Shown one piece after another: positions 17,203 through 45,745 of a stretch of DNA of 64,000 bases. A program made the translations under genes and the position numbers. Within the stretch, counting starts at the first letter, position 1; each line of letters starts with the position of its first letter. The DNA lies in NCBI GenBank assembly GCA_963755825.1, contig CAVWLA010000003.1:1748240-1812239 (forward strand). The letters run 5' to 3'. The DNA is from an uncultured Acidobacteriota bacterium. Its GTDB lineage: Bacteria > Acidobacteriota > Thermoanaerobaculia > Multivoradales > UBA5704. The notes beneath the pieces are model-generated. The model was given only the letters and a program-made list of their open reading frames with translations. It was not told where the DNA came from and did no database searches.

Positions 17203-17235
17203 GGAGCGAGGCCGCAGCCTCGCTCCTTTTTCTTT
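17203..17235 (+). terminator. rho-independent terminator/attenuator after rpsU (copy 1)
   Basis: 10-bp stem GGAGCGAGGC / GCCTCGCTCC with CGCA loop, followed by TTTTTCTTT. Confidence 0.8.
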
Positions 17236-17238
17236 GTC

Positions 17239-17267
17239 CGAGGCCGCAGCCTCGCTCCTTTTTCTTT
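17239..17267 (+). terminator. second, tandemly duplicated terminator-like hairpin (copy 2)
   Basis: An exact 29-nt duplicate of 17207-17235 (CGAGGCCGCAGCCTCGCTCCTTTTTCTTT), offset by 32 nt. Here the stem is only 6 bp (CGAGGC/GCCTCG), plus the T tract. Confidence 0.6.
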
Positions 17268-17272
17268 CTCCG

Positions 17273-19792
17273 ATGGAACACGAACTCCTCCTCGACACCC
17301 CCCCGCCGCCGGCCTCCGCCGTCGTCTCCGCCGCCTCCGCGGCCGCGCTCGAGCTGCCGAGCTTCCTCGCCGTCCTCGCGCGCCTGGCGGCGACGGACCT
17401 CGGGCGCGACCGCGCCCTGGCACTGGTCCCCGCGGCGGACGACGAGGAGCTCCGCCGGCGGCGGCGGCGGTTCGAGGAGGCGAGCCGCGTCACCGGAGGC
17501 TCCGGCGGGCCGGGGCTCGTCCCCGACTTCGAGGTGCCGATCGGCTCCCTCCTCTCCGGCATCGCGACCGGCCGGCCGCCGGTCGAGGGGAGCGACCTCG
17601 TCCACCTCGCCGACCTCATCAAGGCGAGCCGCGCCGCCGCCCTCCGCATCGCCGCCGTCGACCCGGCCGCCCGCGAGCTCGCCGGCCTCGCCGCCGCCCT
17701 CCCCGACCTGGGCGACCTGCAGCGGCGGATCGACCGCACCCTCGACCGCCGCGGCGAGGTGCGCGAGGACGCCAGCCCCCTCCTCGCCAGCCTCCGCGGC
17801 CAGATCCGCCGCGTCCGCGATCAGCTCTACCGCGAGCTCGGCGACTTCGTCTCCGGCCACAAGGACGAGCTCTCCGAGGAGACCATCCCGATGCGCGGCG
17901 GCCGGCTCGTCCTGGTGCTCCAGGCCGGCGCCCGCGGCCGGAGCAGCGGCCTCGTCCACGGCCGCTCGGCGACCGGCAAGAGCTTCTACTTCGAGCCGCT
18001 GGGCGTCGTCGAGTCGAACAACAACCTGCAGCAGTCGGTCGAGGACGAGGAGGCCGAGCGGCGGCGCATCCTCGCCGAGCTGATCGACCTCGCCCACCGC
18101 GCGCTCGCCGACCTCGAGGTCCACGCCGCCTTCCTCGGCGAGCTCGACCTGCTGCAGACGGCGGCCCGCTTCGCCGAGCTCTCCGGCGGCCGCCTCGCCG
18201 AGACCTCGCCGCGCGGCGAGCTGCGGCTCCGCGCGGCGCGCCACCCGCTCCTCGACGGGCGGCTGGCGGAGCTCCGCGAGGCGGCGCTCGGCCACGCCGG
18301 GCACGCCGGCGACATCGTGCCGCTCGACCTCGACTTCACGCCCGACCGCCGCATCCTGGTGGTCACCGGCCCCAACGCCGGCGGCAAGACGGTGGCGTTG
18401 AAGACGGCCGGCCTCCTGGCGCTCATCGCCCAGTGCGGCCTGCCGATCCCCGCCGCCGCCGGCAGCCGCGTGCCCTGCCTCTCCCGGCTGGTGGCGACAG
18501 TCGGCGACGAGCAGGATCTCCTCGCCGACCGCTCGACCTTCAGCGGCCGGCTGCTCCGCCTGAAGGAGGCCTGGGAGGCGGCGGGACCGGACAGCCTGGT
18601 GCTCCTCGATGAGCTGGGCTCGGGGACCGATCCGGAGGAGGGCGCGGCGCTCGCCGTGGCGCTTCTGGAGGGGCTCCTCGAGCGCGGCGCCCTGGGCGTC
18701 ATCACCACCCACCTCTCCCAGCTCGCCGCCGCCGCCATCGAGCTCTCGGGAGCGACCTGCGCGGCGATGGAGTTCGTCCCCGAGACCGGCCGCCCCACCT
18801 TCCGCCTGGTGCCCGGACCGCCCGGCGGCAGCGAGGCGCTCGCCCTCGGCCGCCGGCTCGGCCTCCCCGCCGAATGGCTCGACCGCGCCGAGGCGCGGCT
18901 GGGGACCGAGCACCGCGACCTCCGCCGGCTCCTCGCCGAGGTCGACCGCGTGCGCACCGAGCTCGGCGAGGCCCGCGACCGCCTGGAGGTCGAGGCGGCC
19001 GACGCCGAGAAGCTCCGCCGCCGGCTCGCCGACGAGCGCGCGGCGCTCGAGGAGGAGCGCAAGGCCGTCGGCCGCCGCTTGAAGGGCGAGGTCGACGCCT
19101 TCCGCCGCGAGGTGCGCGATCAGCTGCGGGCCGAGGTCGAGCGCCTGCGCGAGGAGGTCGCCGGCGGCCGCCGCCGCGGCCTCGAGGCGGCGGCGGTCGA
19201 CCGCCTCTTCGCCACCGCCCCCGAGCTCCCCGACGAGGCGCCGGCGGCCACCGGCGGCAGGCTCGCCGTGGGGTCGCCGGCACGCCACGCCCTCCTCGGC
19301 TGGCAGGGCATCGTCGAGAAGCTCGAGCCCGGCCGCGCCGAGGTCTCGGTCAAGGGCAAGCGCCTGCGCTGCCGCCCCGAGGAGCTGGTCCCGATCGCCG
19401 CCGACGCCGGCACTCCTCCCGCGGGCGAGAACCGCGCCGAGCGCCGCGCCGAGGCGTCGACGCGGCGGAGCCGCGGACCCCTCGCCGAGGAGGTCGCCGC
19501 CCGCGATCCGCGCGGCGCGGCGGGCGAGGGCTTCGGCGCCGAGGCCAAGGTCGAGATCAACCTCATCGGCCGCCGCGTCGAGCCGGCGCTCGAGGAGCTC
19601 GACGCCTATCTCGACCAGGCCCTCCTCTCCTCGCGCCGCGAGGTGCGGGTGATCCACGGCCACGGCACCGGCCGCCTGCGCGACGCCGTCCGCGAGCACC
19701 TCCGCGGCCACTCCGGCGTCGCCGGCATCCGCGCCGGCGAAGCGAACGAAGGCGGCAACGGGGCGACCGTCGTCACCCTGCGCGGGGCTTGA
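17273..19792 (+). CDS. mutS2: endonuclease MutS2 (MutS domain V ATPase plus C-terminal Smr domain)
   Basis: Walker A VVTGPNAGGKTV. MutS signature STFSGRL and DELGSGTDPEEG. C-terminal Smr block VRVIHGHGTGRLRDAVREHL. The start is taken at ATG 17273 (MEHELL) and has no obvious Shine-Dalgarno sequence. Confidence 0.88.
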   Translation: MEHELLLDTPPPPASAVVSAASAAALELPSFLAVLARLAATDLGRDRALALVPAADDEELRRRRRRFEEASRVTGGSGGPGLVPDFEVPIGSLLSGIATGRPPVEGSDLVHLADLIKASRAAALRIAAVDPAARELAGLAAALPDLGDLQRRIDRTLDRRGEVREDASPLLASLRGQIRRVRDQLYRELGDFVSGHKDELSEETIPMRGGRLVLVLQAGARGRSSGLVHGRSATGKSFYFEPLGVVESNNNLQQSVEDEEAERRRILAELIDLAHRALADLEVHAAFLGELDLLQTAARFAELSGGRLAETSPRGELRLRAARHPLLDGRLAELREAALGHAGHAGDIVPLDLDFTPDRRILVVTGPNAGGKTVALKTAGLLALIAQCGLPIPAAAGSRVPCLSRLVATVGDEQDLLADRSTFSGRLLRLKEAWEAAGPDSLVLLDELGSGTDPEEGAALAVALLEGLLERGALGVITTHLSQLAAAAIELSGATCAAMEFVPETGRPTFRLVPGPPGGSEALALGRRLGLPAEWLDRAEARLGTEHRDLRRLLAEVDRVRTELGEARDRLEVEAADAEKLRRRLADERAALEEERKAVGRRLKGEVDAFRREVRDQLRAEVERLREEVAGGRRRGLEAAAVDRLFATAPELPDEAPAATGGRLAVGSPARHALLGWQGIVEKLEPGRAEVSVKGKRLRCRPEELVPIAADAGTPPAGENRAERRAEASTRRSRGPLAEEVAARDPRGAAGEGFGAEAKVEINLIGRRVEPALEELDAYLDQALLSSRREVRVIHGHGTGRLRDAVREHLRGHSGVAGIRAGEANEGGNGATVVTLRGA

Positions 19793-23663: not shown

Positions 23664-23738
23664 TCCTCGGTAGCTCAATGGTAGAGCGTTCGGCTGTTAA
23701 CCGAAATGTTGGGGGTTCGAGTCCCTCCCGAGGAGCCA
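23664..23738 (+). tRNA. tRNA-Asn (anticodon GTT), CCA encoded
   Basis: Manual cloverleaf: acceptor TCCTCGG/CCGAGGA, D stem GCTC/GAGC, anticodon stem TTCGG/CCGAA with loop CTGTTAA, T arm GGGGG-TTCGAGT-CCCTC, discriminator G, then CCA. Confidence 0.9.
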
Positions 23739-31911: not shown

Positions 31912-32004
<93 letters not shown>

Positions 32005-33116: not shown

Positions 33117-33851
33117 TTACCAGCCGAGCACGGTGACGAGGACGCCCACCGCGGCGATGGTGCCGCCGGCGGCGGCATCGCCGTAGCGGTCGAGGAACTT
33201 GAAGTTGAGCATGCGGGCGCCGGCTCGCGCCGGCAGGACGAGGGCGACCATCGTCGCCAGCGTCGCCGCCTCGTAGAGGAGGACGACGCCGGTGGCGCGG
33301 GCGGCGCCGAGCGGCGCGGCGGCGAAGATGATCGGCACCACGGCGACGCAGGGGTCGGCCGAGAAGAGGAGGAAGAGCGTCCAGACCGTCGTCCGCTCCG
33401 GCTCGTGGACGTGGTCGTAGTGGTCGTGGACGTGGCCGTGGAAGTGCGCGCCGGCGCTCCGGCGCAGGCCCCAGATGGCGTAGGCGAGGCCGAAGCCGAT
33501 GAGGAGGATGCCGGCGAGCGCCTCCATCCGCTTGCCCACCGAATCGAGGACGCGCAAGCCGAAGAGGAGGCCGAGGAAGCCGAGGAGCGCCGAGGTGGTG
33601 ACGTGGCCGAAGCCGCAGAGGAGGGTCACCCGCGCCGTCCGCCCCGCCGACCAGCCGCGGGCGCGCGCCACGGCGGCGAAGGGCGCCCAATGGTCGGGCG
33701 CCAGGGTATGGATCGCGGCGACGGAGACCGCCGCCGTCGCGAGAGCCCAGAACACCCCGCCGGTCAGCATCGCGGGGCGGCGGCCGGGAGGCGGCAGCGA
33801 TCGGTCGTCATGCAAGGCACTATATAGCTCTAGAAGTTGAAGAGCGTCCAT
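33117..33851 (-). CDS. nickel/cobalt transporter-like membrane protein (NiCoT/NicO-type HX4DH motif, His-rich loop)
   Basis: 244 aa, polytopic. HTLAPDH matches the HX4DH signature of the NiCoT family. Cytoplasmic His-rich loop HFHGHVHDHYDHVHEPE. Confidence 0.65.
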   Translation of the reverse strand: MDALQLLELYSALHDDRSLPPPGRRPAMLTGGVFWALATAAVSVAAIHTLAPDHWAPFAAVARARGWSAGRTARVTLLCGFGHVTTSALLGFLGLLFGLRVLDSVGKRMEALAGILLIGFGLAYAIWGLRRSAGAHFHGHVHDHYDHVHEPERTTVWTLFLLFSADPCVAVVPIIFAAAPLGAARATGVVLLYEAATLATMVALVLPARAGARMLNFKFLDRYGDAAAGGTIAAVGVLVTVLGW

Positions 33852-34927
33852 AGGCCGAACTCATCGTACTTGCCCTCGGCGCGGGCTACCGCCGAGCCGA
33901 CCGTGCCGTTCGGCTCCGAGATCGTGCCCCCCTCGACCGTCTCGTGCTTGTAGGCGAGCGCGGCCTGAAAGTCCTTGTTGACCTTGATCTCGATGCCGGC
34001 GTTGGCGTAGCGGTCCTCGAGGCCGGGCTTCAGGTCCTGACTGGGCCTGGCGTCGTCGTAGCGGCCGAAGAGCGCCACCCTGGGAGCGAGCGCGAAAGAG
34101 ACCCAGGCCGAGAGGCCGTTCGAGCGGTCGCTCGCCGCCGACGTGACGGTGTTCCAGTCGTTGGCCCGGAAGTACTCGCCGCCGAGCCGCAGCCGACTGC
34201 CGACATAGCCGATCGCGGCGTCCAGGCGCGTCGCGGTGTGGAGGGCCGGCAGCGCGGCGGTCTCCAGGCCGCGCTTCCCCGAGTAGCCGCCGAGCCCCAC
34301 GTTCCAGCCCGGCGCCGGCTCGAAGCCGATGCGCCCCTCGAAGTCGACGCTCTTGCTGCGCGTCGGGTCGCTGTAGCCGCGGCCGTTCTCGGCCGAGAGC
34401 TGATAGCTCCACTTGGTGTCACCGCCGGTGCGGCCGACGAAGTGGGCGCCCCAGTCTGCCGAGACGCCGAAGCCGAGGCGGTCGAGCACCTCGTTCTCGA
34501 CGTAGCGGTAGCCGTAGAGGCTCTCGGCATAGGGCACCCAGGCGGTGTCCGCCGAGCCGAGCTGGAGGATCGCCTGCGGGCTGAGCTTCGCCTGCACGAA
34601 CGCCTTCTTGACGAAGAGGTCGTAGCGCTTGGCGCCCTTGTCGCCGATGTCGGAGGTGAAGCTCGCCGACCAGACGCTATCGAAGGAGTGGGTGACGCCG
34701 ACGTAGAAGCGCTTGACGTCGGCGCCGACGCCGCTGTCGCTCGTCTTCGCCCCCGTGCCGTCGTCCCTGTTCTCCTTGCCGGTGAAGTCGGCGAAGACGC
34801 GGCCGGTGATCGTCGTCGCCTCCTGTGCCATCGCCGGCCGGCCGCCGCCGATCGACGCGGCGACCGACATCATCATCAGAATTGCCGCGAGCGCGGCCCT
34901 GCCCATCTCCTGGTTTCGCATCGTCAC
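33830..34927 (-). CDS. outer-membrane beta-barrel porin-like protein
   Basis: Signal peptide ending AMAQE. Alternating beta-strand pattern rich in G/Y/S/D. C-terminal aromatic residue (WTLFNF). The 3' end overlaps the next gene by 22 nt. Confidence 0.7.
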   Translation of the reverse strand: MTMRNQEMGRAALAAILMMMSVAASIGGGRPAMAQEATTITGRVFADFTGKENRDDGTGAKTSDSGVGADVKRFYVGVTHSFDSVWSASFTSDIGDKGAKRYDLFVKKAFVQAKLSPQAILQLGSADTAWVPYAESLYGYRYVENEVLDRLGFGVSADWGAHFVGRTGGDTKWSYQLSAENGRGYSDPTRSKSVDFEGRIGFEPAPGWNVGLGGYSGKRGLETAALPALHTATRLDAAIGYVGSRLRLGGEYFRANDWNTVTSAASDRSNGLSAWVSFALAPRVALFGRYDDARPSQDLKPGLEDRYANAGIEIKVNKDFQAALAYKHETVEGGTISEPNGTVGSAVARAEGKYDEFGLWTLFNF

Positions 34928-35125: not shown

Positions 35126-35884
35126 ATGCTGCGAGACGCGGGCAAGTGGCTCACCTACCGGCGCGAGAGCGCGCACCCCAGGCTCCGCCTGTTCTGCTTC
35201 CCCTTCGGCGGCGGCGGCGCCTCGGCCTACTCCGCCTGGCAGGCGGCGATGCCCGCCGGCGTCGAGGTCTGCCCGGTGCAGCCGCCGGGCCGCGAGAACC
35301 GGTTCGTCGAGCCGGCGATCACCCGCATGCCGGCGATGGTGGCGGCGGCGACCGAGGTCCTGGCGCCCTACCTCGATCTCCCCTTCGCGCTCTTCGGCCA
35401 CAGCGTCGGCGCCATGACCGTCTTCGAGCTCGCCCGCGAGCTGCGCCGGCAGGGCATGAGCAGGCCGGAGTGGCTCTTCGTCTCCGGCCATCCGGCCGTC
35501 CACCTGCCGCGTCGCCGGCCGCTGGTGAGCGGCCTCGGCCGCCCGCAGTTCATCCGCTCGATGCGCGTCGACTTCGGCGTCGACCCGGCGCTCCTCGACA
35601 ACCCGGACCTGATGGACATCGTCTACCCGACGCTGCGCGCCGACTACGAGCTCGTCGAGACCTACGCCTACCGCGACGAGCCGCCGCTCGACGTGCCGCT
35701 CACCGCCTTCGGCGGCACGGTCGACCCGGAGACCACCGAGCCCGAGCTCGAGGCCTGGCGGCGGCACAGCAGCGGACCCTTCCGCAGCCTCGTTCTCCCC
35801 GGCAACCACATGTTCGTCAACACCGCCCGCGCCGCCCTCGTCGCCGAGGTGGCGCAGGACCTCGCGCGGACCGCGCTCGTCTGA
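35126..35884 (+). CDS. type II thioesterase (alpha/beta hydrolase, GrsT/SrfAD-like)
   Basis: GAGGAGG ribosome-binding site. LFCFPFGGGGASAYSAW and the nucleophile elbow GHSVGAM are characteristic of stand-alone editing thioesterases. Confidence 0.85.
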   Translation: MLRDAGKWLTYRRESAHPRLRLFCFPFGGGGASAYSAWQAAMPAGVEVCPVQPPGRENRFVEPAITRMPAMVAAATEVLAPYLDLPFALFGHSVGAMTVFELARELRRQGMSRPEWLFVSGHPAVHLPRRRPLVSGLGRPQFIRSMRVDFGVDPALLDNPDLMDIVYPTLRADYELVETYAYRDEPPLDVPLTAFGGTVDPETTEPELEAWRRHSSGPFRSLVLPGNHMFVNTARAALVAEVAQDLARTALV

Positions 35885-35895
35885 GGAGGGGCGGT

Positions 35896-38754
35896 TTAGG
35901 CGAGCCGCCGGCGGCGGGCGAGGAGAGCCGCGCCGAGGACGGCGAGCAGCGCCGCCGCCGACCCGGCGATGGCGAGCTGGCGGCGATGGATGAAGCCCCA
36001 GCTCCGCCCGCCGGGGGCGGGCACCAGGTCGCCATCGCCCAAGACGACGAAGCCGGCCCATGCCGAGGTGGGGATTTCCGGATTCTCGCGGCGGAGGTCG
36101 CGCTGCGCCGCGGCGAGAGCGGCCGAGTAGCTCATCCCCGCGGCGAGATGGCGGTAGAACCACTGGAAGAAGTTCCGCGCCTCGTCGTCCCGCTGCGGCC
36201 AGAGGCTCGCCACCACGACGCTCGCCTTCGCCTCGAAGAAGGCACGAGCGAGCGACAGGACTCCCTCGCCGCGCACCAGCTCACCGCGGGCGCTGCTGCA
36301 GGTCGAGAGCACGACGGCTTGCCCTGGGCGGAGCGGCAGCGCGGCGATCTCCGACGTCCGCAGCAGGCCGTCCTCGCTGGGAGATCCAGGGGACAGCCAG
36401 ATGCCGGCGCTCTCGGGTTCGTGCTCGTCGGCCAGCGAGTGTGTGGCGAAGTGGAGAATGGCGAAGCGCTGCAGGCTCCTGCTCTCGGCCATCTTTTTGA
36501 AGGCGCTCTCCGAGACGTCGTCGCCGACGCGGCGATCACCGCCCAGCGAGTCGACGGCAGTGCGCGCCTCGCTGGCGGCAAACTGCAGCGCCTCGGCCGG
36601 CAGGTCGACGCCTTCGAGCCGCGTGCGCAGGGCGGCATCGGGAAGCGGCGGATTGGCGAGGGCGAGCACCGGCCGGCCACCGGGGAGCGCCTTCTCCTGG
36701 TGCCAGAGCTGCCAGAGGGTGGCGGAGGGCACCTCCGAGAGCAGGAAGCGCTCGCCGAGCGGTGGCCCTGCCGCCAGATGCAGAGCGGCGAAGGGGAGGC
36801 GGCTCAGGGCGTCGTCGGGGACGACGATCAGGTGGTCGATCGCCGCCGGCAGGCCGGCGAGGGCGGGCGCCACGAGCTGCCCGTAGAGGCCGGCGGCGAG
36901 CGCCCTCTCGCGGCTCGTGCCGGGCCCGGAGCCCGCGGCGGCCGCGAGGTACTCGTCGACCGCCGAGCGCATAGCCTGGCGACCCATCCCGCCGAGGCGG
37001 ACCACACGGGGCGGCGCGTCGCGGGTGATGACGACGAGCCAGGAACCGCCACCGAAGTCCCCCGTCCAGTCGTTCCAGGGCGCGACCTGAAACGAGAGCA
37101 GGGCCTCGTTCGCGAGCAGGTGCGCGCGCACTTGAGAGAGGCTCGCGCGAGCCTTGGCGGGCGGTGCCGGGGGCACGGCGCGCTCGGCTTCCACCGCGCG
37201 TTGGTCTCGCCCGAGCGCGGCGAGGTCCTCCGTCGCCTCGCCGCGTTCGCTCGGAGAGAGAGAGGCGTCCCTTGCGCGGTCGGCGACGCGCTTGATCTCC
37301 TTCTCGAGCAGCGAAGCTCGATCGTCCAGCTCCTTCTCGGTCGCCGGGTTTGCGGGCGTTTTCTCGAGCGTCTCGAGCAGCGTCTGCGCGCGCAGGCGCT
37401 CGATGACATCGAACGCTCGCGAGAGGAGATCCGCGTCGTGCCCGGCCGCGGCCGCTAGGAGGTGTCCGGAAGACCAGTAGAACTCGTCCGACCAGGTCGA
37501 AAAGAACCTCGCCTGGCTGTTCCCGCCCTCCTGGCTGCCGCGAAGCGCCTCGATGTCGTGCAGCGCCGCCTCCGTCGCCGCCAGTGCCTCGCCGCGAGAA
37601 CCGCTCCTCCAAGCAGCGCGCATCGCGCTCTCGCGCGCATAGATCGCCGCCCACGGATCGGAGCCGGCGAGCTTGATCGCTTGGTCCGCCGCCGCCTTCG
37701 CCGCCGCCGGATCGCTCGCGGCAAGATTGCGAGCGCGAGCGCCGAAACAGTAGCTGCGATTCATGTTGGCAATTTTCTGCCGCGGATCGAGGCAGGCGTC
37801 GAGATCCGCCTCGGCAGCGGCGCCGCCCAGCAACTCGGCAAGCACATCGTGCTCGGTGCTGGCATTGCTGGAATCGCGCACGGCCTCGGCAACGCGGAGC
37901 GCTCGCTCCATGGCAGCGACCGCCTCGGCACGTGCTTCCGCGCTCGGCAGCACGGCCAGCCTTTCGACCACAACGCGAGCGATCCCGTAGAGGGCGGTCG
38001 ATGCCGCACTATTTTCGGGCTTGTGGCTCGCTAGATCATAGCTGCGCTTGTAAGCGGTCTTTGCCTCGTCGAAGAGACCGAGCTCGAGGGCGACGCTGCC
38101 GAGAGTCGCCTGGCAGTCCTGCTGAACCGCTTTCCCTCCGAGAAGCCCTGGGTACGCCGCCAGCTGCCGATCGACATTCTTCAGGAGAGCTTCGGCACGA
38201 CGCAGCGCCTTGCCGGATCGGAGGTGCTGCTTCGCCTCCAGGATCTTCCGCTTCGCCACGCTGATCGTATCGGTCGCGGAGGCGGAAGCCGCGAGGGCGC
38301 GAGCGGTCTCCAGCTCGACTTCATCGAGAAACTTCTCGCCGTACAGCACGCGGATGAGACTCGTCCGCGCCACCAACTCGCCCGCACGATCCCCTCGCAC
38401 GGCGAAGCCGGCAGCCGCCGATCGATAGCCCACCTCGTCGGTAACAGACGGCGAAGCGTCGGGCTCGAGCAGATGAGTGGTGCTGTAGGAGATCCAGGGA
38501 TGGAGAGGAGCGCTGCCAGGAGCGTGCGCGGCGAGAGCCTGCATGCGGCGAACGATCTCCAGGCCCTTCGCGTCGTCCAGCGGATGATGCTGATCGGGCA
38601 GAGCCTCGAAACACGCTGCCGTCTCCCTGGCTTCGGGGCTCGCGGCGAACCTCTTCTCGCAGCTGGCTACGTCACCGGCCTGCGCCTGCCCAGCCGCGGC
38701 GAGGAGCAGGAGCAGGCCGGCGACGGCGGCATCTCCGGCGGCATTTGGCGTCAC
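35896..38754 (-). CDS. TPR-repeat CHAT-domain (caspase-like) protease with signal peptide and C-terminal membrane anchor
   Basis: 952 aa, GTG start. N-terminal h-region AVAGLLLLLAAAGQAQA. About 500 aa of TPR-like helical repeats. CHAT dyad candidates are His in FAILHFATHS (about residue 772) and Cys in VVLSTCSS (residue 819, codon 36298-36300). C-terminal TM LAIAGSAAALLAVLGAALLA followed by RRRR. Confidence 0.88.
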   Translation of the reverse strand: MTPNAAGDAAVAGLLLLLAAAGQAQAGDVASCEKRFAASPEARETAACFEALPDQHHPLDDAKGLEIVRRMQALAAHAPGSAPLHPWISYSTTHLLEPDASPSVTDEVGYRSAAAGFAVRGDRAGELVARTSLIRVLYGEKFLDEVELETARALAASASATDTISVAKRKILEAKQHLRSGKALRRAEALLKNVDRQLAAYPGLLGGKAVQQDCQATLGSVALELGLFDEAKTAYKRSYDLASHKPENSAASTALYGIARVVVERLAVLPSAEARAEAVAAMERALRVAEAVRDSSNASTEHDVLAELLGGAAAEADLDACLDPRQKIANMNRSYCFGARARNLAASDPAAAKAAADQAIKLAGSDPWAAIYARESAMRAAWRSGSRGEALAATEAALHDIEALRGSQEGGNSQARFFSTWSDEFYWSSGHLLAAAAGHDADLLSRAFDVIERLRAQTLLETLEKTPANPATEKELDDRASLLEKEIKRVADRARDASLSPSERGEATEDLAALGRDQRAVEAERAVPPAPPAKARASLSQVRAHLLANEALLSFQVAPWNDWTGDFGGGSWLVVITRDAPPRVVRLGGMGRQAMRSAVDEYLAAAAGSGPGTSRERALAAGLYGQLVAPALAGLPAAIDHLIVVPDDALSRLPFAALHLAAGPPLGERFLLSEVPSATLWQLWHQEKALPGGRPVLALANPPLPDAALRTRLEGVDLPAEALQFAASEARTAVDSLGGDRRVGDDVSESAFKKMAESRSLQRFAILHFATHSLADEHEPESAGIWLSPGSPSEDGLLRTSEIAALPLRPGQAVVLSTCSSARGELVRGEGVLSLARAFFEAKASVVVASLWPQRDDEARNFFQWFYRHLAAGMSYSAALAAAQRDLRRENPEIPTSAWAGFVVLGDGDLVPAPGGRSWGFIHRRQLAIAGSAAALLAVLGAALLARRRRLA

Positions 38755-38830
38755 GTCATCAGGTTATCCCAATTGCGCAAGAACGGAATGGGGGCGCGTG
38801 TCCTGACTCGCGGCCCCCCAAAACTCTCCG

Positions 38831-38962
38831 CTAGGCGGGGGGTTTGCTTTCGGTCGGCGGCGGCGTCACGCACTGCGCGCCGAGCTGGCCGCCGAGCTGA
38901 ACGGAGTACACGTCCTGGTCAGACGGGTCGTCTGGGCCCAGATCCTCGATTCCATCGAACAT
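38831..38962 (-). CDS. unannotated 43-aa acidic, Pro-rich mini-protein
   Basis: It is too short for the ORF track and was found by hand. GAGGAGGA lies 5 nt upstream of the ATG. The sequence is MFDGIEDLGPDDPSDQDVYSVQLGGQLGAQCVTPPPTESKPPA. Third codon positions are mostly G/C, as in genuine genes here. Confidence 0.5.
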   Translation of the reverse strand: MFDGIEDLGPDDPSDQDVYSVQLGGQLGAQCVTPPPTESKPPA

Positions 38963-39019
38963 CGCGATCCTCCTCGTCGGTTGTGGTGGCGCTGGCCCAC
39001 GGCCGCGCGTCAGCCGGTT

Positions 39020-39283
39020 TCAGCCCCTGAGATCGGGCTTCCGCTCGTTCGCTCTGTCGTCCACCTGAATCGCTGTCCCGCGCGGCACGGACCGCCGCTT
39101 CGGCCGAGTGACCTTGAAGCCGAGGTTCCAAAAGAGGCTGATGGCGTATCTCCTCGGCTTCGGCTGCGGCTTCGGCTTCGGCTCGTTCCGGACCGACACC
39201 ATCTCGACGGACCGCGGGGCGGCCGGGCGCTGCGGGTCGACTGCCTCGTCGCAGTTCTCTTTCTTGTGTACAAAATCGAGCAT
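39020..39283 (-). CDS. 87-aa basic protein with (K/Q)P repeat
   Basis: AAAGGAAGG lies 4 nt upstream of the ATG. G/C-rich third codon positions. EPKPKPQPKPRR is encoded by a hexanucleotide repeat. No family recognised. Confidence 0.55.
   Translation of the reverse strand: MLDFVHKKENCDEAVDPQRPAAPRSVEMVSVRNEPKPKPQPKPRRYAISLFWNLGFKVTRPKRRSVPRGTAIQVDDRANERKPDLRG
39154..39183. repeat. hexanucleotide tandem repeat (TCGGCT-like, 5 units)
   Basis: The plus strand reads tcggct tcggct gcggct tcggct tcggct. It lies in frame inside the 87-aa ORF and encodes PKPKPQPKP on the minus strand. Confidence 0.8.
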
Positions 39284-39400
39284 ACCGCCTTCCTTTCTGT
39301 CTCCGGCCCTGAGGAGTCCCAGGACGATCCCGGGTCTGTGATCAAGAACGAACGAAAGGTGGGTATTCCCTCAACTGGCGCGCGAGGGGCGCGAAATGTT

Positions 39401-40054
39401 TCAGTGCAGGGTGAGATTTCTTACGGAGTAGGCCGTGCGGTGGCCGTCGGAAGAGGTGGCCGTCACCAGCAGGTGGAGCTTGGTCTGCGGCGGATAGATG
39501 GCCAGCTCGTCCGGGAGAATGCTCGCCTTCAGCACGGTGAGCCTGTGCCACTCGGCGACGACGTCTCCGGTCGCCGTGGTGACGACCACGTCGTAGGTGG
39601 CGCCCGGCGTCTCCTGCCAGCTCACGATGGCGTTCTCGCGATCGAGGGCCGGCGCCGCCGCGCTCACGGCGCTGTGCCCGCCGCCGCGCGGAACAGACGC
39701 CGGGCCGCCGAGCATCATCTCCACGATGAGCGCCGCCGCCGCGGCCGCCGACGCGCCCCAGACCGCGAAGCGGGCACGGCGGGACCGCCGCCGCATCTCC
39801 GGTGCCGTCATCGGCTGGTCGGCGACGGTGTCCAGGCCGACGGCCGTGGCGAGGCGCCAGTCCTCGACGCAGGACGGGCAGCCGGCGAGGTGATCGATCA
39901 CGGCGCGGAGCTCCGCCGGCGGCAGCTCGCCGGCGGCGGCGGCCCAGATCGACGCCGACGGCGGGCAGGTGGCGGGCGCCGGCGCGGCGCCCGGCGCGGT
40001 GAATGCCCGCCGCAGCTCGGCGAGCGTTCGGCTGTCGTCGCTCTCGTCCGTCAT
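39401..40054 (-). CDS. anti-sigma factor (zf-HC2 type), single-pass, with periplasmic beta-rich domain
   Basis: ATG at 40054 is in frame with track ORF 39401..40645. Putative zinc motif HLAGCPSC. TM segment FAVWGASAAAAAALIVEMMLGG. A C-terminal domain of about 100 aa. The start overlaps the sigma gene stop (ATGA). Confidence 0.8.
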   Translation of the reverse strand: MTDESDDSRTLAELRRAFTAPGAAPAPATCPPSASIWAAAAGELPPAELRAVIDHLAGCPSCVEDWRLATAVGLDTVADQPMTAPEMRRRSRRARFAVWGASAAAAAALIVEMMLGGPASVPRGGGHSAVSAAAPALDRENAIVSWQETPGATYDVVVTTATGDVVAEWHRLTVLKASILPDELAIYPPQTKLHLLVTATSSDGHRTAYSVRNLTLH

Positions 40055-40590
40055 CTCGTCACCCCCGAGGACTTCAGGCAGCCGCGCAGGTCGGCGAGGC
40101 CTCGATAGACGAGGTTCTCGAGCCGCTTGACGCTCCAGCCGAGGAGCCGCGCCGCCTCCGGCACGCTGTGCCCCATCAGATGCAGGGTTACCGCCAACCG
40201 GCGCGGCCGCACCAGGCGGCCGAGGCAGCCCTGGATGACGGCGCCCAGCTCGCGACCGGCCGCCGCCCGTTCGGGGTCCGGCGCCTCGACCGTCCGCTCG
40301 CCCAGCGCACCGCTCTCCTCCAAGGGCACCTCCCGCCTGCGCCGCAGCCGGCGTATCTCGTCGACCAGGGCGCTGTAGGCCGCCTTCCGCAGATAGAACG
40401 AAGAGAACTCCGCCGTTCCCTCGCTCCGGCGGTGCACCTCGATCACCCGCATGAGGGCGACCTGGACCAGATCCTCGGCGCGGTCGGCGAGCCAGGAGGG
40501 GCAGATGCGGCGAACGGCGGAGGCGAGATCGGCGCGCAGCGCGGCCAGATCGCTCGCGCCGAGAGAAGAACCGGGAATGGGTTGCTCCAC
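40051..40590 (-). CDS. ECF (group IV) RNA polymerase sigma factor
   Basis: 179 aa, GTG start. Sigma-70 region 2 (AEDLVQVALMRVIEVHRR, FSSFYLRKAAYSALVDEIRR) and region 4 HTH (HSVPEAARLLGWSVKRLENLVYRGLADLR). Confidence 0.9.
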   Translation of the reverse strand: MEQPIPGSSLGASDLAALRADLASAVRRICPSWLADRAEDLVQVALMRVIEVHRRSEGTAEFSSFYLRKAAYSALVDEIRRLRRRREVPLEESGALGERTVEAPDPERAAAGRELGAVIQGCLGRLVRPRRLAVTLHLMGHSVPEAARLLGWSVKRLENLVYRGLADLRGCLKSSGVTR

Positions 40591-40730
40591 GGGACCGGGC
40601 GTCTCCAGGGAGCTCGAGGGAGCTCCACGAGAGCGTTTGCGTCAATGATTTGGAGAATCGAGCCTACCATGGAAGGAGGCGGGCCACCGGACCTTCCGCC
40701 TCGGCGACGCCGGGCGCCCGGCCCGCCGCC

Positions 40731-41816
40731 CTACTGCCGCGCCGCCGCCGGCCCTTCGACGAGCCGGAGGGCCGGCCGGCCGAGCTCGATGCCGCGCTCT
40801 GCGAGCGCCGCGAGGAGCGCCAGGTTTACCGCCTGCTGGCGGTCCATGTAGGTGGCGAAATCCGCCGTCAGCACGACGTAGGTGGCCTCGAAGTCGAGCG
40901 TCGCGGCGCCGAGGGTCTTGAGGTGCGCGCGCTCGAAGCGCACCGTCGGCAGCGCCTCGACGATCTGCCGCACCAGCGCCGGGATCTCCGCCGCCGCCGC
41001 GGCGGGGGTGTCGAGGGCGACGCCGAAGGCGAGCGTCACCCGCCGCTCGGCCATGCGCTGAAAGTTGTGGATGCGGCTCTTCAGCAGTTCGCCGTTGGCG
41101 CAGACGACCTGTTCGCCGGTGGGGCTGCGCAGCCGCGTGGTCTTGAGGCCGATGCTCTCGACGACGCCCGAGACGTCGCCGGCGGTGATCGAGTCGCCGA
41201 GGACGAACGGCTTGTCGATGACGATCGAGAGCGAGGCGAAGAGGTCTCCCAGGATGTTCTGCACGGCGAGCGCGACGGCGACGCCGCCGACGCCCAGGCC
41301 GGTCACCAGCGCGGTGACGTTGACCCCCAGATTGTCGAGCGCGAGGAGGAGGAGGAGCGACCAGAGGGCGAGCTTGCCGGCGAAGCGCAGCACCCACACC
41401 GTCGTCGCCGCCGCGGCGTCGGTCGGCAGCCGCCGGCGGCGGTAGCCGGCGACCCAGACGTCGATCCCGATCGACAGCCAGAAGGCGAGCTGCAGGAGGA
41501 TGGCGACGATCGCCGCCGAGCGCAGCAGGTGCTGGCTGATCGGGAAGGCGTCGAGGGCCAGGCTCCCCAGGTAGAGGGCGGGGAAGAAGAGCAGCAGCGA
41601 GCGCGTCTGCCGCAGCAGGTCGACGCCGAAATCCTCGACCCCGAGGCCGCTGGCGCCGGCTCCGGCCATGCGGGCCACCCGGCCGAGCACGACGCGTTTC
41701 AAGACCAGCGCGGCAAGGAAGGCCGCCGCGGCGATGGCGGCGGCGAGCAGCCAGTGGCCGATCGCCTCGCCGAGGAAGGTCGCGGCGAGGAGCCTGGCGA
41801 GCGGCATGACCGTCAT
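40731..41816 (-). CDS. mechanosensitive ion channel, MscS family
   Basis: The start is taken at the internal ATG 41816 so that it does not overlap the divergent gdh gene. TM region, then the MscS beta-domain NILGDLFASLSIVIDKPFVLGDSITAGDVSGVVESIGLKTTRLRSPTGEQV. Confidence 0.85.
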   Translation of the reverse strand: MTVMPLARLLAATFLGEAIGHWLLAAAIAAAAFLAALVLKRVVLGRVARMAGAGASGLGVEDFGVDLLRQTRSLLLFFPALYLGSLALDAFPISQHLLRSAAIVAILLQLAFWLSIGIDVWVAGYRRRRLPTDAAAATTVWVLRFAGKLALWSLLLLLALDNLGVNVTALVTGLGVGGVAVALAVQNILGDLFASLSIVIDKPFVLGDSITAGDVSGVVESIGLKTTRLRSPTGEQVVCANGELLKSRIHNFQRMAERRVTLAFGVALDTPAAAAAEIPALVRQIVEALPTVRFERAHLKTLGAATLDFEATYVVLTADFATYMDRQQAVNLALLAALAERGIELGRPALRLVEGPAAARQ

Positions 41817-42001
41817 CAGGGCCGTCGTTCCTCGCTGGGGTGGGCGTCGGAGCGGGAAGGGGGAGCGAGCGGGTGCAGCGACTTGCGCGCTGAAGCGATA
41901 GAATGCTATCACTCCCTTCGCCCCGGCCGATCCCGCCGCCCATTCGACCACGAGCCATCGAGGCCGCTCCCCAGCCACGGCAACCTTGCCAAGGAAAACC
42001 A

Positions 42002-43417
<1,416 letters not shown>

Positions 43418-43494: not shown

Positions 43495-43568
43495 TGGGAG
43501 GTCGTTCAATGGTAGGACATGCGGCTCTGGACCGCAGAATCGGGGTTCGAGTCCCTGCCTCCCAGCCA
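43495..43568 (+). tRNA. tRNA-Gln (anticodon CTG), CCA encoded
   Basis: Acceptor TGGGAGG/CCTCCCA, D stem GTTC/GGAC, anticodon stem TGCGG/CCGCA with loop CTCTGGA, T arm CGGGG-TTCGAGT-CCCTG, discriminator G, then CCA. Confidence 0.9.
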
Positions 43569-44296: not shown

Positions 44297-45601
44297 TCAG
44301 CCGGCGTGCTGGGGCCGGTTCCAGGCGCGGCGGAGATAGGTGGTGAGCTCGCGGAAGATGCTCCCCCGGACCTGCTTCTCGCGCAGCGAGCGCAGCGCGA
44401 GGAGGAGGACGGCGAGCCCCTCCTCGTGCATCCCCCAGCCCGCGAGCGAGCTGTGGATCTGCCCGACGATGTCGAGCGTCTCGTCGAGGCGGCCCTGGGC
44501 GGCGAAATTCTCCGCCAGGTCGATCATCATCAGGACGTACTCCTGATGGAGGCCGTAGCGGAGCAGCTCCTCGGCCGTGCCGGTGAGGATCGCCTCGGCC
44601 TCGGCGAGCCGCCCCATGCCGCGGTGGATCTTGGCCTCGAGCCAGAGGCGGCGGATCTGGGCGGCGCGGTCTCCGAAGCGGTGATAGAGCCAGCGGGACT
44701 TCTGCAGCAGCTCCTGCGCCTCTTCCGGTCGGCCGAGATCGCAGAGGAAAAACGCCGAGGTATGCCGGATGGAGAGCTCTAGCCGGGGCTCGCGGTGACC
44801 GTCGATCAGGGCGTGGGCGTCGCGCAGCAGGGCGACGCCGCGCTCGGGATCGACGTAGCCGATCGCCAGCGCCTCCTGGATGTTGACGCGGCCGATCATG
44901 TGCCGATCGCGCACCCTCTCGTAGATGGCGCGAGCCTTGGCGAGAACAGCGACAGCCTTGTCGAAGCGACCGAGATCGGTCAGTAGCGAGGCGGTGAGCG
45001 AATAGATGTGCGCCAGCTCGAGCCGATCGCAATCGTCTTGCTCGAGGAGGATGCGCTCCGCCAGCGCGAGCGAGCCGGCGGCGGCCTCAAAGTCGGCTGC
45101 CAGGCGCTGAGCGTTGCCGAGCGCGGCGAGAGCGGCGGTCCTGATCTCCAGGATCGTGGGCTCTCCGTAGCTGGCCCCGTCGAGCTTCTCGGCGACAGCG
45201 AGAGCGAGGCGAGCCAACTCCACAGCGTCGATCGGCTCGTCGCGTGCCCGCTCCTTGGAAACCTCGAGGAGCCGCTCGTACAGACCATAAGTGAGGTAAC
45301 TGGGGTCGTTGTTGATGCGGAGCTGGCGCTGCCGGGGGGAGAGACGCTCGAGATAGGCCCACTGCTCGCGGGCTCGCAGCCGCTCCGACCGCGGCTCGCT
45401 CGGCCACGCTGATCTCGTGCTCATCAATCGCCAGAAGACGGCGTCGTACTCGGCCGGCGGCTCCTCGTGAGCAAAAACGTCGCTCGCGAGCTGTCGGCAG
45501 ATCCGGCAACCGGACAGCAGATGCCGCAGGATCCGGTTGCGGTCCTCGCTACCCATGGAATTGTCGAAAAAACTCCGAAGCTCGCCCCGCATCACGTGCA
45601 T
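44297..45601 (-). CDS. cytoplasmic TPR-repeat protein with N-terminal zinc-finger-like motif (anti-sigma-like)
   Basis: ATG at 45601 lies 5 nt after GGAGGG. N-terminal HLLSGCRICRQ resembles the zf-HC2 motif of anti-sigma factors. There is no TM segment. The remaining ~350 aa are TPR-like helical repeats. Confidence 0.7.
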   Translation of the reverse strand: MHVMRGELRSFFDNSMGSEDRNRILRHLLSGCRICRQLASDVFAHEEPPAEYDAVFWRLMSTRSAWPSEPRSERLRAREQWAYLERLSPRQRQLRINNDPSYLTYGLYERLLEVSKERARDEPIDAVELARLALAVAEKLDGASYGEPTILEIRTAALAALGNAQRLAADFEAAAGSLALAERILLEQDDCDRLELAHIYSLTASLLTDLGRFDKAVAVLAKARAIYERVRDRHMIGRVNIQEALAIGYVDPERGVALLRDAHALIDGHREPRLELSIRHTSAFFLCDLGRPEEAQELLQKSRWLYHRFGDRAAQIRRLWLEAKIHRGMGRLAEAEAILTGTAEELLRYGLHQEYVLMMIDLAENFAAQGRLDETLDIVGQIHSSLAGWGMHEEGLAVLLLALRSLREKQVRGSIFRELTTYLRRAWNRPQHAG

Positions 45602-45745
45602 GGCACCCTCCGAAGGGGCTGTCGCGAATCCAGCGCGGATTCTACAACCTTGCGAAGGTACGGAGAAGGGCTGAGCTCGGAAGACGCAAGCCTCCCCAGG
45701 GAGGGTCACTGTCCTCCCAGCCCCGAAGTCCTGATTCGAGAAGGG

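Follow-up and report, generated by a model that had tools for sequence, protein, structure and literature searches.

The window, a 64,000-nucleotide stretch of the genome of an uncultured Acidobacteriota bacterium (assembly GCA_963755825.1, contig CAVWLA010000003.1, positions 1,748,240 to 1,812,239), harbors on its minus strand a locus of five genes (35896-40590) coding for a sigma factor of the extracytoplasmic function (ECF) type, its zinc-binding anti-sigma factor, two mini-proteins, here named A and B, and a predicted TPR-CHAT caspase-like protease (Table 1). The nearest known system is the DdvS/DdvA pair of Myxococcus xanthus, and the locus is a split (trans) version of it, in which the protease and the anti-sigma factor are encoded by separate genes. 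From the sequence, we infer three transcription units, namely the sigma/anti-sigma pair, a promoter-like motif followed by the mini-protein genes and a hairpin, and the CHAT gene. A mechanism is proposed tentatively, with a probability that we place a little short of even: the sigma factor, the anti-sigma factor and the periplasmic TPR-CHAT protein would form a standing sensor, in which CHAT cuts the anti-sigma factor and the sigma factor then fires the promoter of the mini-proteins.

The five co-directional open reading frames (ORFs) had been described in an earlier, sequence-only reading of the window, and they were confirmed at the coordinates claimed there; all five are genuine genes. In the sigma factor, Sigma70_r2 (residues 18-85) and Sigma70_r4_2 (residues 119-168) both score over their gathering thresholds, and TIGR02937 is matched with E = 2e-14 and 53.6 bits (cut-off 42.9). 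The stop codon of the sigma gene and the start codon of the anti-sigma gene share an ATGA overlap, and this coupling to a zf-HC2 anti-sigma gene, already read from the sequence, is upheld by Pfam, TIGR02937 and the overlap itself. The residues C30, H55, C59 and C62 of the anti-sigma factor, which make up the N-terminal H-x3-C-x2-C zinc motif in the CHCC form of the DdvA subtype, are conserved among 57 homologues, and R123, in the juxtamembrane linker, is likewise conserved among them. The sole hydrophobic segment by Kyte-Doolittle hydropathy lies at approximately residues 96-116 and is preceded by RRRSRRAR; by this heuristic, the protein is predicted to cross the membrane once, with its N-terminus inside and its C-terminus outside.

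A beta-rich C-terminal domain of about 100 residues had been assigned to the anti-sigma factor, together with one transmembrane (TM) segment. The TM segment and the beta-rich nature stand, and the size has to be corrected to approximately 80 residues (136-217). AlphaFold2 (AF2) models these residues as a beta-sandwich (predicted local distance difference test, pLDDT, 85-92), which is FN3-like according to Foldseek and is predicted to face the periplasm. The anti-sigma domain and TM segment together are 34% identical to those of P0048, a fused DdvA-like protein that is discussed below. A word-indexed protein search with the anti-sigma factor returned only three relatives, and a full HMMER scan and hidden Markov models (HMMs) built from the loci were used instead.

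The 952-residue protein matches the Pfam CHAT family PF12770 over model positions 2-289 of 289 (E = 1.8e-48). Its AF2 model (pLDDT 87.7, predicted TM-score 0.85) has an alpha-solenoid (residues 29-545), then the CHAT domain, which is of the alpha/beta type, and a helix near the C-terminus (residues 919-951). A Foldseek search against the PDB gave Csx29 of Craspase as the top match (8eey_B, E = 8e-17), and also human separase (E = 2e-14; the separase matches include 9hma and 7nj1) and the anti-sigma factor DdvA (8rot_A, E = 6e-12), all with a Foldseek probability of 1.0 across 800-1100 columns. The TPR-CHAT assignment is sound, because the fold search recovers these three proteins. They were recovered by fold alone and not by sequence or profile searches of the PDB: the single-sequence search of the PDB had no matches, and the profile search gave only TPR proteins, including the TPRs of LGN/Pins, and marginal separase matches.

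The His and Cys residues that had been pointed out as a catalytic dyad line up with the CHAT catalytic residues. Among 44 homologues, C819 never varies and H772 is retained in 90% or more, and both are invariant in the five closest relatives. Since the domain is complete, the dyad is conserved and the fold matches Csx29, separase and DdvA, the catalytic competence of CHAT is supported.

The topology of the protein was assessed by hydropathy heuristics and by conservation across homologous loci. Its N-terminus contains a hydrophobic h-region with AQA; of 49 homologues, 47 have such a region immediately ahead of a conserved C-x(13-18)-C pair. At the other end, 62 of 70 homologues close with a hydrophobic helix and two or more basic residues after it, and many of the relatives have textbook signal peptides. 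The architecture proposed earlier (signal-peptide-like N-terminus, TPR-like repeats, CHAT domain, TM helix and RRRR) thus holds by Pfam, AF2 and hydropathy. TPR-CHAT is predicted to be periplasmic, in the same compartment as the C-terminal domain of the anti-sigma factor, and these heuristics support the earlier placement of both outside the cytoplasm. The C-terminal anchor is predicted to hold the CHAT domain close to the inner membrane, beside the juxtamembrane linker of the anti-sigma factor. A PEP-CTERM-type sorting signal was considered for the C-terminus; no NCBIfam match was found, and the segment is treated as a plain TM anchor.

In the DdvS/DdvA system, a CHCC zinc anti-sigma domain, one TM segment and a periplasmic TPR-CHAT region are joined in the single polypeptide DdvA, which becomes a substrate of RseP when TPR-CHAT is missing (PMC11506125, published in 2024). 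The authors of that work propose, without demonstration, that CHAT makes the site-1 cut in trans within a DdvA dimer (PMC11506125). The two systems have in common an ECF sigma factor, a co-located CHCC anti-sigma factor with a single TM segment, a membrane-tethered periplasmic TPR-CHAT with a conserved His/Cys dyad, which for the window is a prediction, and the same proposed logic of CHAT as the site-1 protease before RseP. The sequence-only reading had called the module Craspase-like and had suggested CHAT as the site-1 protease; Craspase is the wrong nearest neighbor, and, given DdvS/DdvA, the site-1 idea is less novel than was assumed.

Unlike in DdvA, TPR-CHAT in the window is encoded as a protein of its own, which has a signal peptide and is anchored by a C-terminal TM segment, whereas the anchor of DdvA is N-terminal. 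Its gene is separated from the anti-sigma gene by the 646 bp that contain the two mini-ORFs, the ectodomain of the anti-sigma factor is a small FN3-like domain, and the proposed cleavage would occur in trans between two proteins rather than between the protomers of a dimer. The proposed local regulon consists of two mini-proteins, in contrast to the island encoding CBASS and a type III-B CRISPR system that DdvS/DdvA controls, thereby protecting against a phage (PMC11506125). Fused forms have been reported only from Myxococcota and one Comamonas species (PMC11506125). The DdvS/DdvA distribution is centered on Myxococcota, whereas that of the window type is centered on Acidobacteriota.

Two further proteins, P0042 and P0048, also have a zf-HC2 anti-sigma domain joined to a periplasmic TPR-CHAT. 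Because DdvA, P0042 and P0048 fuse the two parts, a functional link between anti-sigma factor and TPR-CHAT is supported in the manner of a Rosetta stone. The fused forms lack a C-terminal TM segment, which the stand-alone TPR-CHATs have; as each retains a tether, TPR-CHAT stays at the membrane in both designs. An origin of the locus by simple fission of DdvS/DdvA was considered and is ruled out by the membrane anchor at the opposite end and by the sigma factors of the fused forms, which are unrelated by BLASTP. By analogy, then, the module is a comparable split design and not a recent fission.

Craspase, the type III-E assembly of Cas7-11 (gRAMP) with Csx29, Csx30, Csx31 and RpoE, resembles the window in its TPR-CHAT architecture and in the genetic linkage of a caspase-like protease to an ECF-type sigma factor and small partner proteins. 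It differs in being cytoplasmic, RNA-guided and bound to Cas7-11, and in cleaving Csx30, a soluble sigma inhibitor, whereas the window has a predicted periplasmic protease and, as its sigma inhibitor, a membrane-bound zinc anti-sigma (ZAS) factor of the classical type. No Csx30 or Csx31 homologue was detected with Pfam, NCBIfam and PADLOC, the protein-family scan covering part of the window.

Similar parallels and differences exist with other proteolytic switches. The classical systems of regulated intramembrane proteolysis, RseA/DegS/RseP and RsiW/PrsW/RasP, likewise have a single-pass anti-sigma factor with a cytoplasmic sigma-binding and an extracytoplasmic domain, as well as a membrane-tethered extracytoplasmic protease placed for the first cut. 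Their site-1 enzymes are serine proteases or metalloproteases, whereas the candidate in the window is a cysteine protease of the caspase fold with a large TPR sensor, and it is encoded in the anti-sigma factor's own module. Separase and securin also combine a TPR-like solenoid and a CHAT/caspase domain with an adjoining small disordered partner, which in the window could by analogy serve as a pseudosubstrate; separase is eukaryotic, much larger and cytoplasmic or nuclear, and the compartments differ. Among ECF groups, a CHAT context was found in the literature only for ECF54, in which CHAT-domain proteins are conserved neighbors and proposed proteolytic regulators (Casas-Pastor 2021; PMC8999054). 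That group lacks anti-sigma factors, and genes for carboxypeptidases and subtilases are found nearby as well (PMC8999054); a canonical ZAS anti-sigma factor is present in the window.

The conservation of the module was surveyed with a CHAT-alignment scan of one genome per species, which gave 80 loci selected by TPR-CHAT similarity only. Most of them belong to Acidobacteriota (Thermoanaerobaculia and Holophagales), and others come from Myxococcota, including Myxococcus xanthus, Corallococcus and Pyxidicoccus. HMMs of the sigma and anti-sigma factors were built from the window and the loci L002 and L003 and were applied to the 60 loci with enough upstream sequence, which come from Acidobacteriota, mainly Thermoanaerobaculia, and from Myxococcota. 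In 45 of these species-level loci, an ECF sigma gene and a zf-HC2 anti-sigma gene lie directly upstream of TPR-CHAT on the same strand, which is co-location far beyond chance; the gene-order survey suggested earlier thus found the order kept in 45 of 60 independent loci. The same order is seen in the metagenomic relatives L001-L003. Many soil bacteria thus share the module. The distance between the anti-sigma and CHAT genes is 300-700 bp in most loci, and in five of them (L050, L066, L069, L076 and L078), the CHAT start lies less than approximately 12 nt from the anti-sigma stop or overlaps it.

In seven loci (L005, L009, L013, L017, L021, L022 and L047), two to three tandem TPR-CHAT paralogues, arranged as peptide-CHAT cassettes, follow a single sigma/anti-sigma pair. 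At least in L005, L017 and L021, every tandem cassette carries a promoter-like motif of its own, and the second cassettes of L005 and L017 encode a distinct small peptide, the one from L005 being 57 residues long and ending in ...YSVTPEENYAGPPGNVVPP. A literature search found no paper on the split module or on the mini-proteins.

The spacer between the anti-sigma and CHAT genes had been described as a GC-depressed stretch of 645 bp; the depression is real (GC 0.63-0.67 versus 0.72-0.79 in the flanks), and the length is 646 bp. The spacer holds the two mini-ORFs, each preceded by a GGAGG-like Shine-Dalgarno (SD) sequence, and counting of charges agrees with the earlier description of A as basic (20 K+R, 11 D+E) and of B as acidic (1 K+R, 8 D+E). 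A word-indexed protein search with the 87-residue ORF A returned only itself, and among 1.84 billion representative proteins, three relatives were found (P0070, P0071 and P0072, with E = 3e-20, 5e-12 and 9e-4). All members of family A follow the consensus (R/K)(Y/F)(A/S)IS(L/I)FW(N/D)xGxK(V/I)TRPKR, and all relatives are located between anti-sigma and TPR-CHAT genes.

Orthologues of mini-protein B that share the motif ...GGQ(L/V)GxxC(V/A)TPP... are encoded in L001, L086 and L088, and B belongs to a wider family of acidic or polar peptides of 38-65 residues with a conserved C-terminal tail, for example DG(S/G)CC(T/V)xPPGGDPGPG. The motif HMM of family B collects 25 members, all 25 immediately upstream of a TPR-CHAT gene, and gives approximately four weak matches elsewhere in the six frames of the loci (about 1 Mb). 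As judged from these sequences, the mini-ORFs belong to two conserved small-protein families that are restricted to the spacer position.

The coding case for the mini-ORFs is made by the conservation of both motif and position. The ratio of nonsynonymous to synonymous substitution (dN/dS) was rejected as proof of coding, because the values between the window and L001, 0.69 and 0.80, come from few sites and are uninformative. A fusion of A and B by read-through was also considered: in the window, L001 and L086, the two ORFs are in frame, with one TGA and approximately 19 codons between them. In L088 they lie in different frames, which rules out the fusion and makes A and B separate genes. In the hydropathy check, neither mini-protein showed a signal peptide or a hydrophobic segment, and an Rfam search of the spacer found nothing.

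In five loci of Myxococcus and Corallococcus (L039, L040, L041, L045 and L046), the mini-peptides are replaced by a beta-rich protein of approximately 190 residues, which carries a signal peptide and has a C-terminus of the Cys/poly-Pro type (...CYFELVPMPRPPPPPPGPVTLKCEPVDPPPPPTR). Neither this protein nor the mini-proteins have a family in Pfam or NCBIfam.

The association of these peptides with TPR-CHAT raises the alternative that they act on the protease. Mini-protein B, and A where it is present, could be a ligand, a securin-like pseudosubstrate inhibitor or, as the sequence-only reading had also suggested, a substrate of the adjacent TPR-CHAT, providing a sigma-driven feedback on the protease that would be positive for an exported autoinducer and negative for an inhibitor. 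TPR solenoids typically bind tails such as the short conserved C-(C/V)-T-x-P-P...G-P that ends these peptides after a disordered polar stretch, and securin inhibits separase in this way. The position of family B peptides immediately upstream of TPR-CHAT (25 against about four weak matches elsewhere), the different peptide for each duplicated CHAT paralogue, the separase-securin structures among the fold matches and the signal-peptide protein with a Cys/Pro-rich C-terminus at the peptide position in Myxococcus are all in agreement with such a pair. The main difficulty is that A and B have neither a signal peptide nor a hydrophobic segment while CHAT is predicted to be periplasmic, and the module encodes no exporter. 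The high dN/dS of the mini-ORFs also counts against a pair, and the Myxococcus protein may not be homologous to family B. We regard this explanation, which is partly compatible with the mechanism favored here, as unlikely.

A more specific version would have the mini-proteins reaching the periplasm by a non-Sec route, binding the cognate TPR solenoid through the C-(C/V)-T-P-P...G-P tail and either inhibiting the protease like securin or activating it like an autoinducer, thereby setting the cleavage of the anti-sigma factor in trans. This peptide-gated switch is more doubtful still. If true, small protein and caspase-fold protease would make up a receptor-protease pair of a new class, governing the release of an ECF sigma factor in a diderm bacterium, and one that can be duplicated as cassettes, with two to three per sigma factor in some genomes.

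Upstream of the mini-ORFs lies a bipartite promoter-like motif, TGAGGGAAT-N12-TTCGTTC, which has the consensus (G)TGAGGGRAT-N12-TTCGTTC with a spacer that varies in sequence and is fixed in length. No fewer than 19 related loci share it; it precedes the first mini-ORF by 60-100 nt and also stands before further peptide-CHAT cassettes. The copy in the 64-kb window is unique, scoring 37.3 with the position weight matrix, while the runner-up scores below 12. Based on this co-occurrence, the natural assignment of the motif would be as the target promoter of this ECF sigma factor, and the mini-ORFs appear to be a separate unit and the local output of the sigma factor rather than passengers of an operon. 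Target promoters of ECF sigma factors combine an AAC-type -35 with a CGT-type -10 element and usually include the promoter of the sigma gene itself. An autoregulatory copy before the sigma gene was sought; it is absent in the window and present in only one related locus (L020).

For the other two units, -10-like elements were read by eye from conservation across loci, and a generic sigma-70 promoter scan of the region found nothing. The context CCATGGTAGGCT of the hexamer ahead of the sigma gene recurs upstream of sigma in the relative L004, and GTAGTACGCT-like elements are found in other loci. Ahead of the CHAT gene, relatives have GGTAGACT, GGTACACT or GATAAGCT 6-9 nt before the start codon, and the window has GATAACCT; no SD sequence precedes the CHAT start in the window or its relatives. 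This pattern suggests that the CHAT gene has its own promoter and a leaderless mRNA. Between the peptide ORF and CHAT, 11 of 13 related loci have a GC hairpin of 10-15 bp at the same place, often with a U-tract (z -2.3 to -5.6), of which the hairpin in the window is a weak counterpart. The five genes are therefore probably not one operon, as far as such patterns can tell.

Strong copies of the same motif also occur between the sigma and anti-sigma genes of four loci (L006 4505-4532, L010 4637-4672, L049 4338-4365 and L052 4508-4535, all on the minus strand), in which the two genes are separated by approximately 100-260 bp. These copies are on the opposite strand and directed back into the sigma gene, and they could serve in antisense or feedback control. 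In L049 and L052, an additional, weaker copy lies on the plus strand just ahead of the anti-sigma gene. In L053, the motif (1751-1778) directly follows the CHAT gene and precedes an ORF starting at 1850; the product of this ORF, a secreted protein of 297 residues made of RTX-like GGxGxD calcium-binding repeats, possibly belongs to the regulon of that genome as well.

In the mechanism that we favor, the ECF sigma factor is predicted to be held by the single-pass CHCC zinc anti-sigma factor. The standing sensor would consist of the sigma/anti-sigma pair and CHAT, each expressed from a housekeeping-type promoter. Upon a signal, perceived through the TPR solenoid, the FN3-like domain or both, CHAT would become active, and it would then cut the juxtamembrane linker of the anti-sigma factor at site 1, with the conserved R123 as a candidate site. 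An RseP-type site-2 protease would subsequently free the sigma factor, and this would transcribe from TGAGGGRAT-N12-TTCGTTC, its local targets being mini-protein A and mini-protein B with its CVTPP tail. The role of the mini-proteins would be that of an output, or of modulators that feed back on the module. The cleavage of the anti-sigma factor by CHAT, the central step, is conjectured.

Several observations weigh against this mechanism. CHAT-dependent autoproteolysis was not observed for DdvA (PMC11506125), and the sigma factors beside two fused DdvA-like proteins have no BLASTP similarity to that of the window, so that the Rosetta-stone argument holds by analogy only. The signal peptide in the window lacks a basic n-region, and the spacing between the -35 and -10 parts of the motif differs from the textbook ECF spacing. 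The hairpin in the window is weak (z = -0.3, not significant alone); because of this, read-through into CHAT is possible, and CHAT could be a sigma-dependent output. Finally, two to three peptide-CHAT cassettes per sigma/anti-sigma pair fit an output at least as well as a sensor.

These last points lead to a different explanation, in which the anti-sigma factor senses alone, using its FN3-like domain together with some unrelated protease for the first cut, and TPR-CHAT and the mini-proteins are the regulon of the sigma factor. The exported protease would then act on envelope or foreign proteins and leave the anti-sigma factor untouched. The regulons of ECF sigma factors commonly adjoin the sigma gene, and the motif, being ahead of the mini-ORFs, is ahead of CHAT too, with only the weak hairpin intervening in the window. 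Tandem motif-bearing peptide-CHAT cassettes behind one sigma/anti-sigma pair, in the seven loci listed above, and peptide-plus-CHAT units without a detectable sigma gene nearby (L008 and L018) would also be expected from an output. However, a strong terminator hairpin divides the peptide ORF from CHAT in most relatives, where CHAT is also equipped with a separate -10-like element. The fusion of TPR-CHAT to the anti-sigma factor in DdvA-type proteins argues for a direct functional coupling, and the tight coupling of CHAT to the anti-sigma stop in five loci likewise counts against a mere output. Overall, this explanation is considered somewhat unlikely.

Cleavage of the anti-sigma factor by CHAT would be of interest because the idea of a periplasmic TPR-CHAT as the site-1 protease of an anti-sigma factor rests on one system, DdvA, in which protease and presumed substrate share one polypeptide. 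In the split module, protease, substrate and sigma factor are on three genes, so that cleavage in trans is separable and the idea becomes directly testable. In addition, the association of TPR-CHAT with anti-sigma factors is far wider than reported for the fused forms, extending over dozens of Acidobacteriota species. A candidate promoter motif for this sigma clade is new here, as are two previously unrecognized small-protein families, which are likely a direct output of the sigma factor and offer a handle on the function of the module.

The genomic surroundings bear on a further alternative, which is that the module is an anti-phage sensor as DdvS/DdvA is, with the periplasmic TPR-CHAT detecting a phage-derived protein and the sigma factor inducing defense genes. 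The phage protection by DdvS/DdvA, the fold common to the TPR-CHAT of the window and Csx29 of type III-E systems, and a weak PADLOC match of the CHAT core to BovA (E = 2.6e-6) would fit such a role. Pfam scans covered the nearest ORFs (35126-35884, 33830-34927 and 40731-42002) and ten ORFs within 23.9-30.8, 33.1-33.9 and 44.3-53.8 kb. No cas genes and no recognized defense genes were found among these neighbors, which represent parts of approximately 24-54 kb, ORFs beyond this range lying outside the scan; they are either housekeeping genes (GluRS, GDH, MscS, ABC transporter and PurK) or unassigned. No CRISPR-like array was found in the window. The earlier statement that neither cas genes nor an array are present in the window thus stands for the array, and for cas genes in the part that was scanned.

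The only motif site in 64 kb precedes the mini-ORFs, which also speaks against this role, and, according to the DdvA authors, only a subset of DdvA-like pairs are near defense systems (PMC11506125). An anti-phage role is very improbable for this locus, and membership in a defense system was rejected, as the BovA match is weak and was the only one.

Table 1. Features of the sigma/anti-sigma/TPR-CHAT locus in the window (aa, residues; SP, signal peptide).
Feature	Position	Strand	Basis or remark
-10-like hexamer TAGGCT of sigma-70 type (context CCATGGTAGGCT)	40661..40666	-	approximately 70 nt upstream of the sigma start; pattern only
ECF (group 4) sigma factor, 179 aa	40051..40590	-	Pfam Sigma70_r2, Sigma70_r4_2; TIGR02937
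Class I zinc (CHCC) anti-sigma factor, 217 aa	39401..40054	-	zf-HC2, E = 4.8e-8
Bipartite promoter-like motif TGAGGGAAT-N12-TTCGTTC	39346..39373	-	candidate ECF sigma target; 62 nt ahead of mini-ORF A
Mini-protein A, 87 aa, basic, core RRYAISLFWNLGFKVTRPKRR	39020..39283	-	SD + ATG; third-position GC (GC3) 0.85; relatives
Mini-protein B, 43 aa, acidic, C-terminal motif GGQLGAQCVTPP	38831..38962	-	SD + ATG; orthologues; motif HMM
GC-rich hairpin after mini-ORF B	38790..38818	-	fold; weak counterpart of the terminator/attenuator of relatives
-10-like hexamer TAACCT	38761..38766	-	6 nt upstream of the CHAT GTG start; pattern only
TPR-CHAT caspase-like protease (predicted), 952 aa, exported, C-terminally anchored	35896..38754	-	Pfam CHAT, AF2, Foldseek
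TPR-CHAT parts	SP 1-26; Cys pair C32/C48; TPR-like solenoid to ~545; CHAT 618-907 (aa)	-	
TPR-CHAT C-terminus: TM, then RRRR	35979-35914 (aa ~926-947)	-	
TPR-CHAT dyad codon H772	36441-36439	-	
TPR-CHAT dyad codon C819	36300-36298	-	

The module also differs from its neighbors in composition, as its GC3 (CHAT 0.83, sigma 0.88 and ORF A 0.85) is below their 0.93-0.97, which may reflect another history or another level of expression. A type II thioesterase gene on the plus strand (35126-35884; Pfam PF00975, E = 5e-41) is convergent with CHAT. In the syntenic relative L001, a porin-like gene, whose counterpart in the window is 33830-34927, directly follows CHAT, and for this reason the thioesterase gene resembles an insertion relative to L001.

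A second TPR protein of 470 residues (44297-45709, minus strand), with TPR_12 and TPR_10 and without a CHAT domain, is encoded 4 kb from the module. Its gene adjoins a tRNA gene at 43495-43565 (+), one of three in the window matched by Rfam RF00005, the others being located at 23664-23735 (+) and 31915-32004 (-). Farther away, at 17207-17273, a 32-bp unit (CGAGGCCGCAGCCTCGCTCCTTTTTCTTTCTC) is repeated 2.1 times with 97% identity just upstream of the ORF 17234-19792, and this repeat includes a sequence that resembles a hairpin followed by a T-tract.

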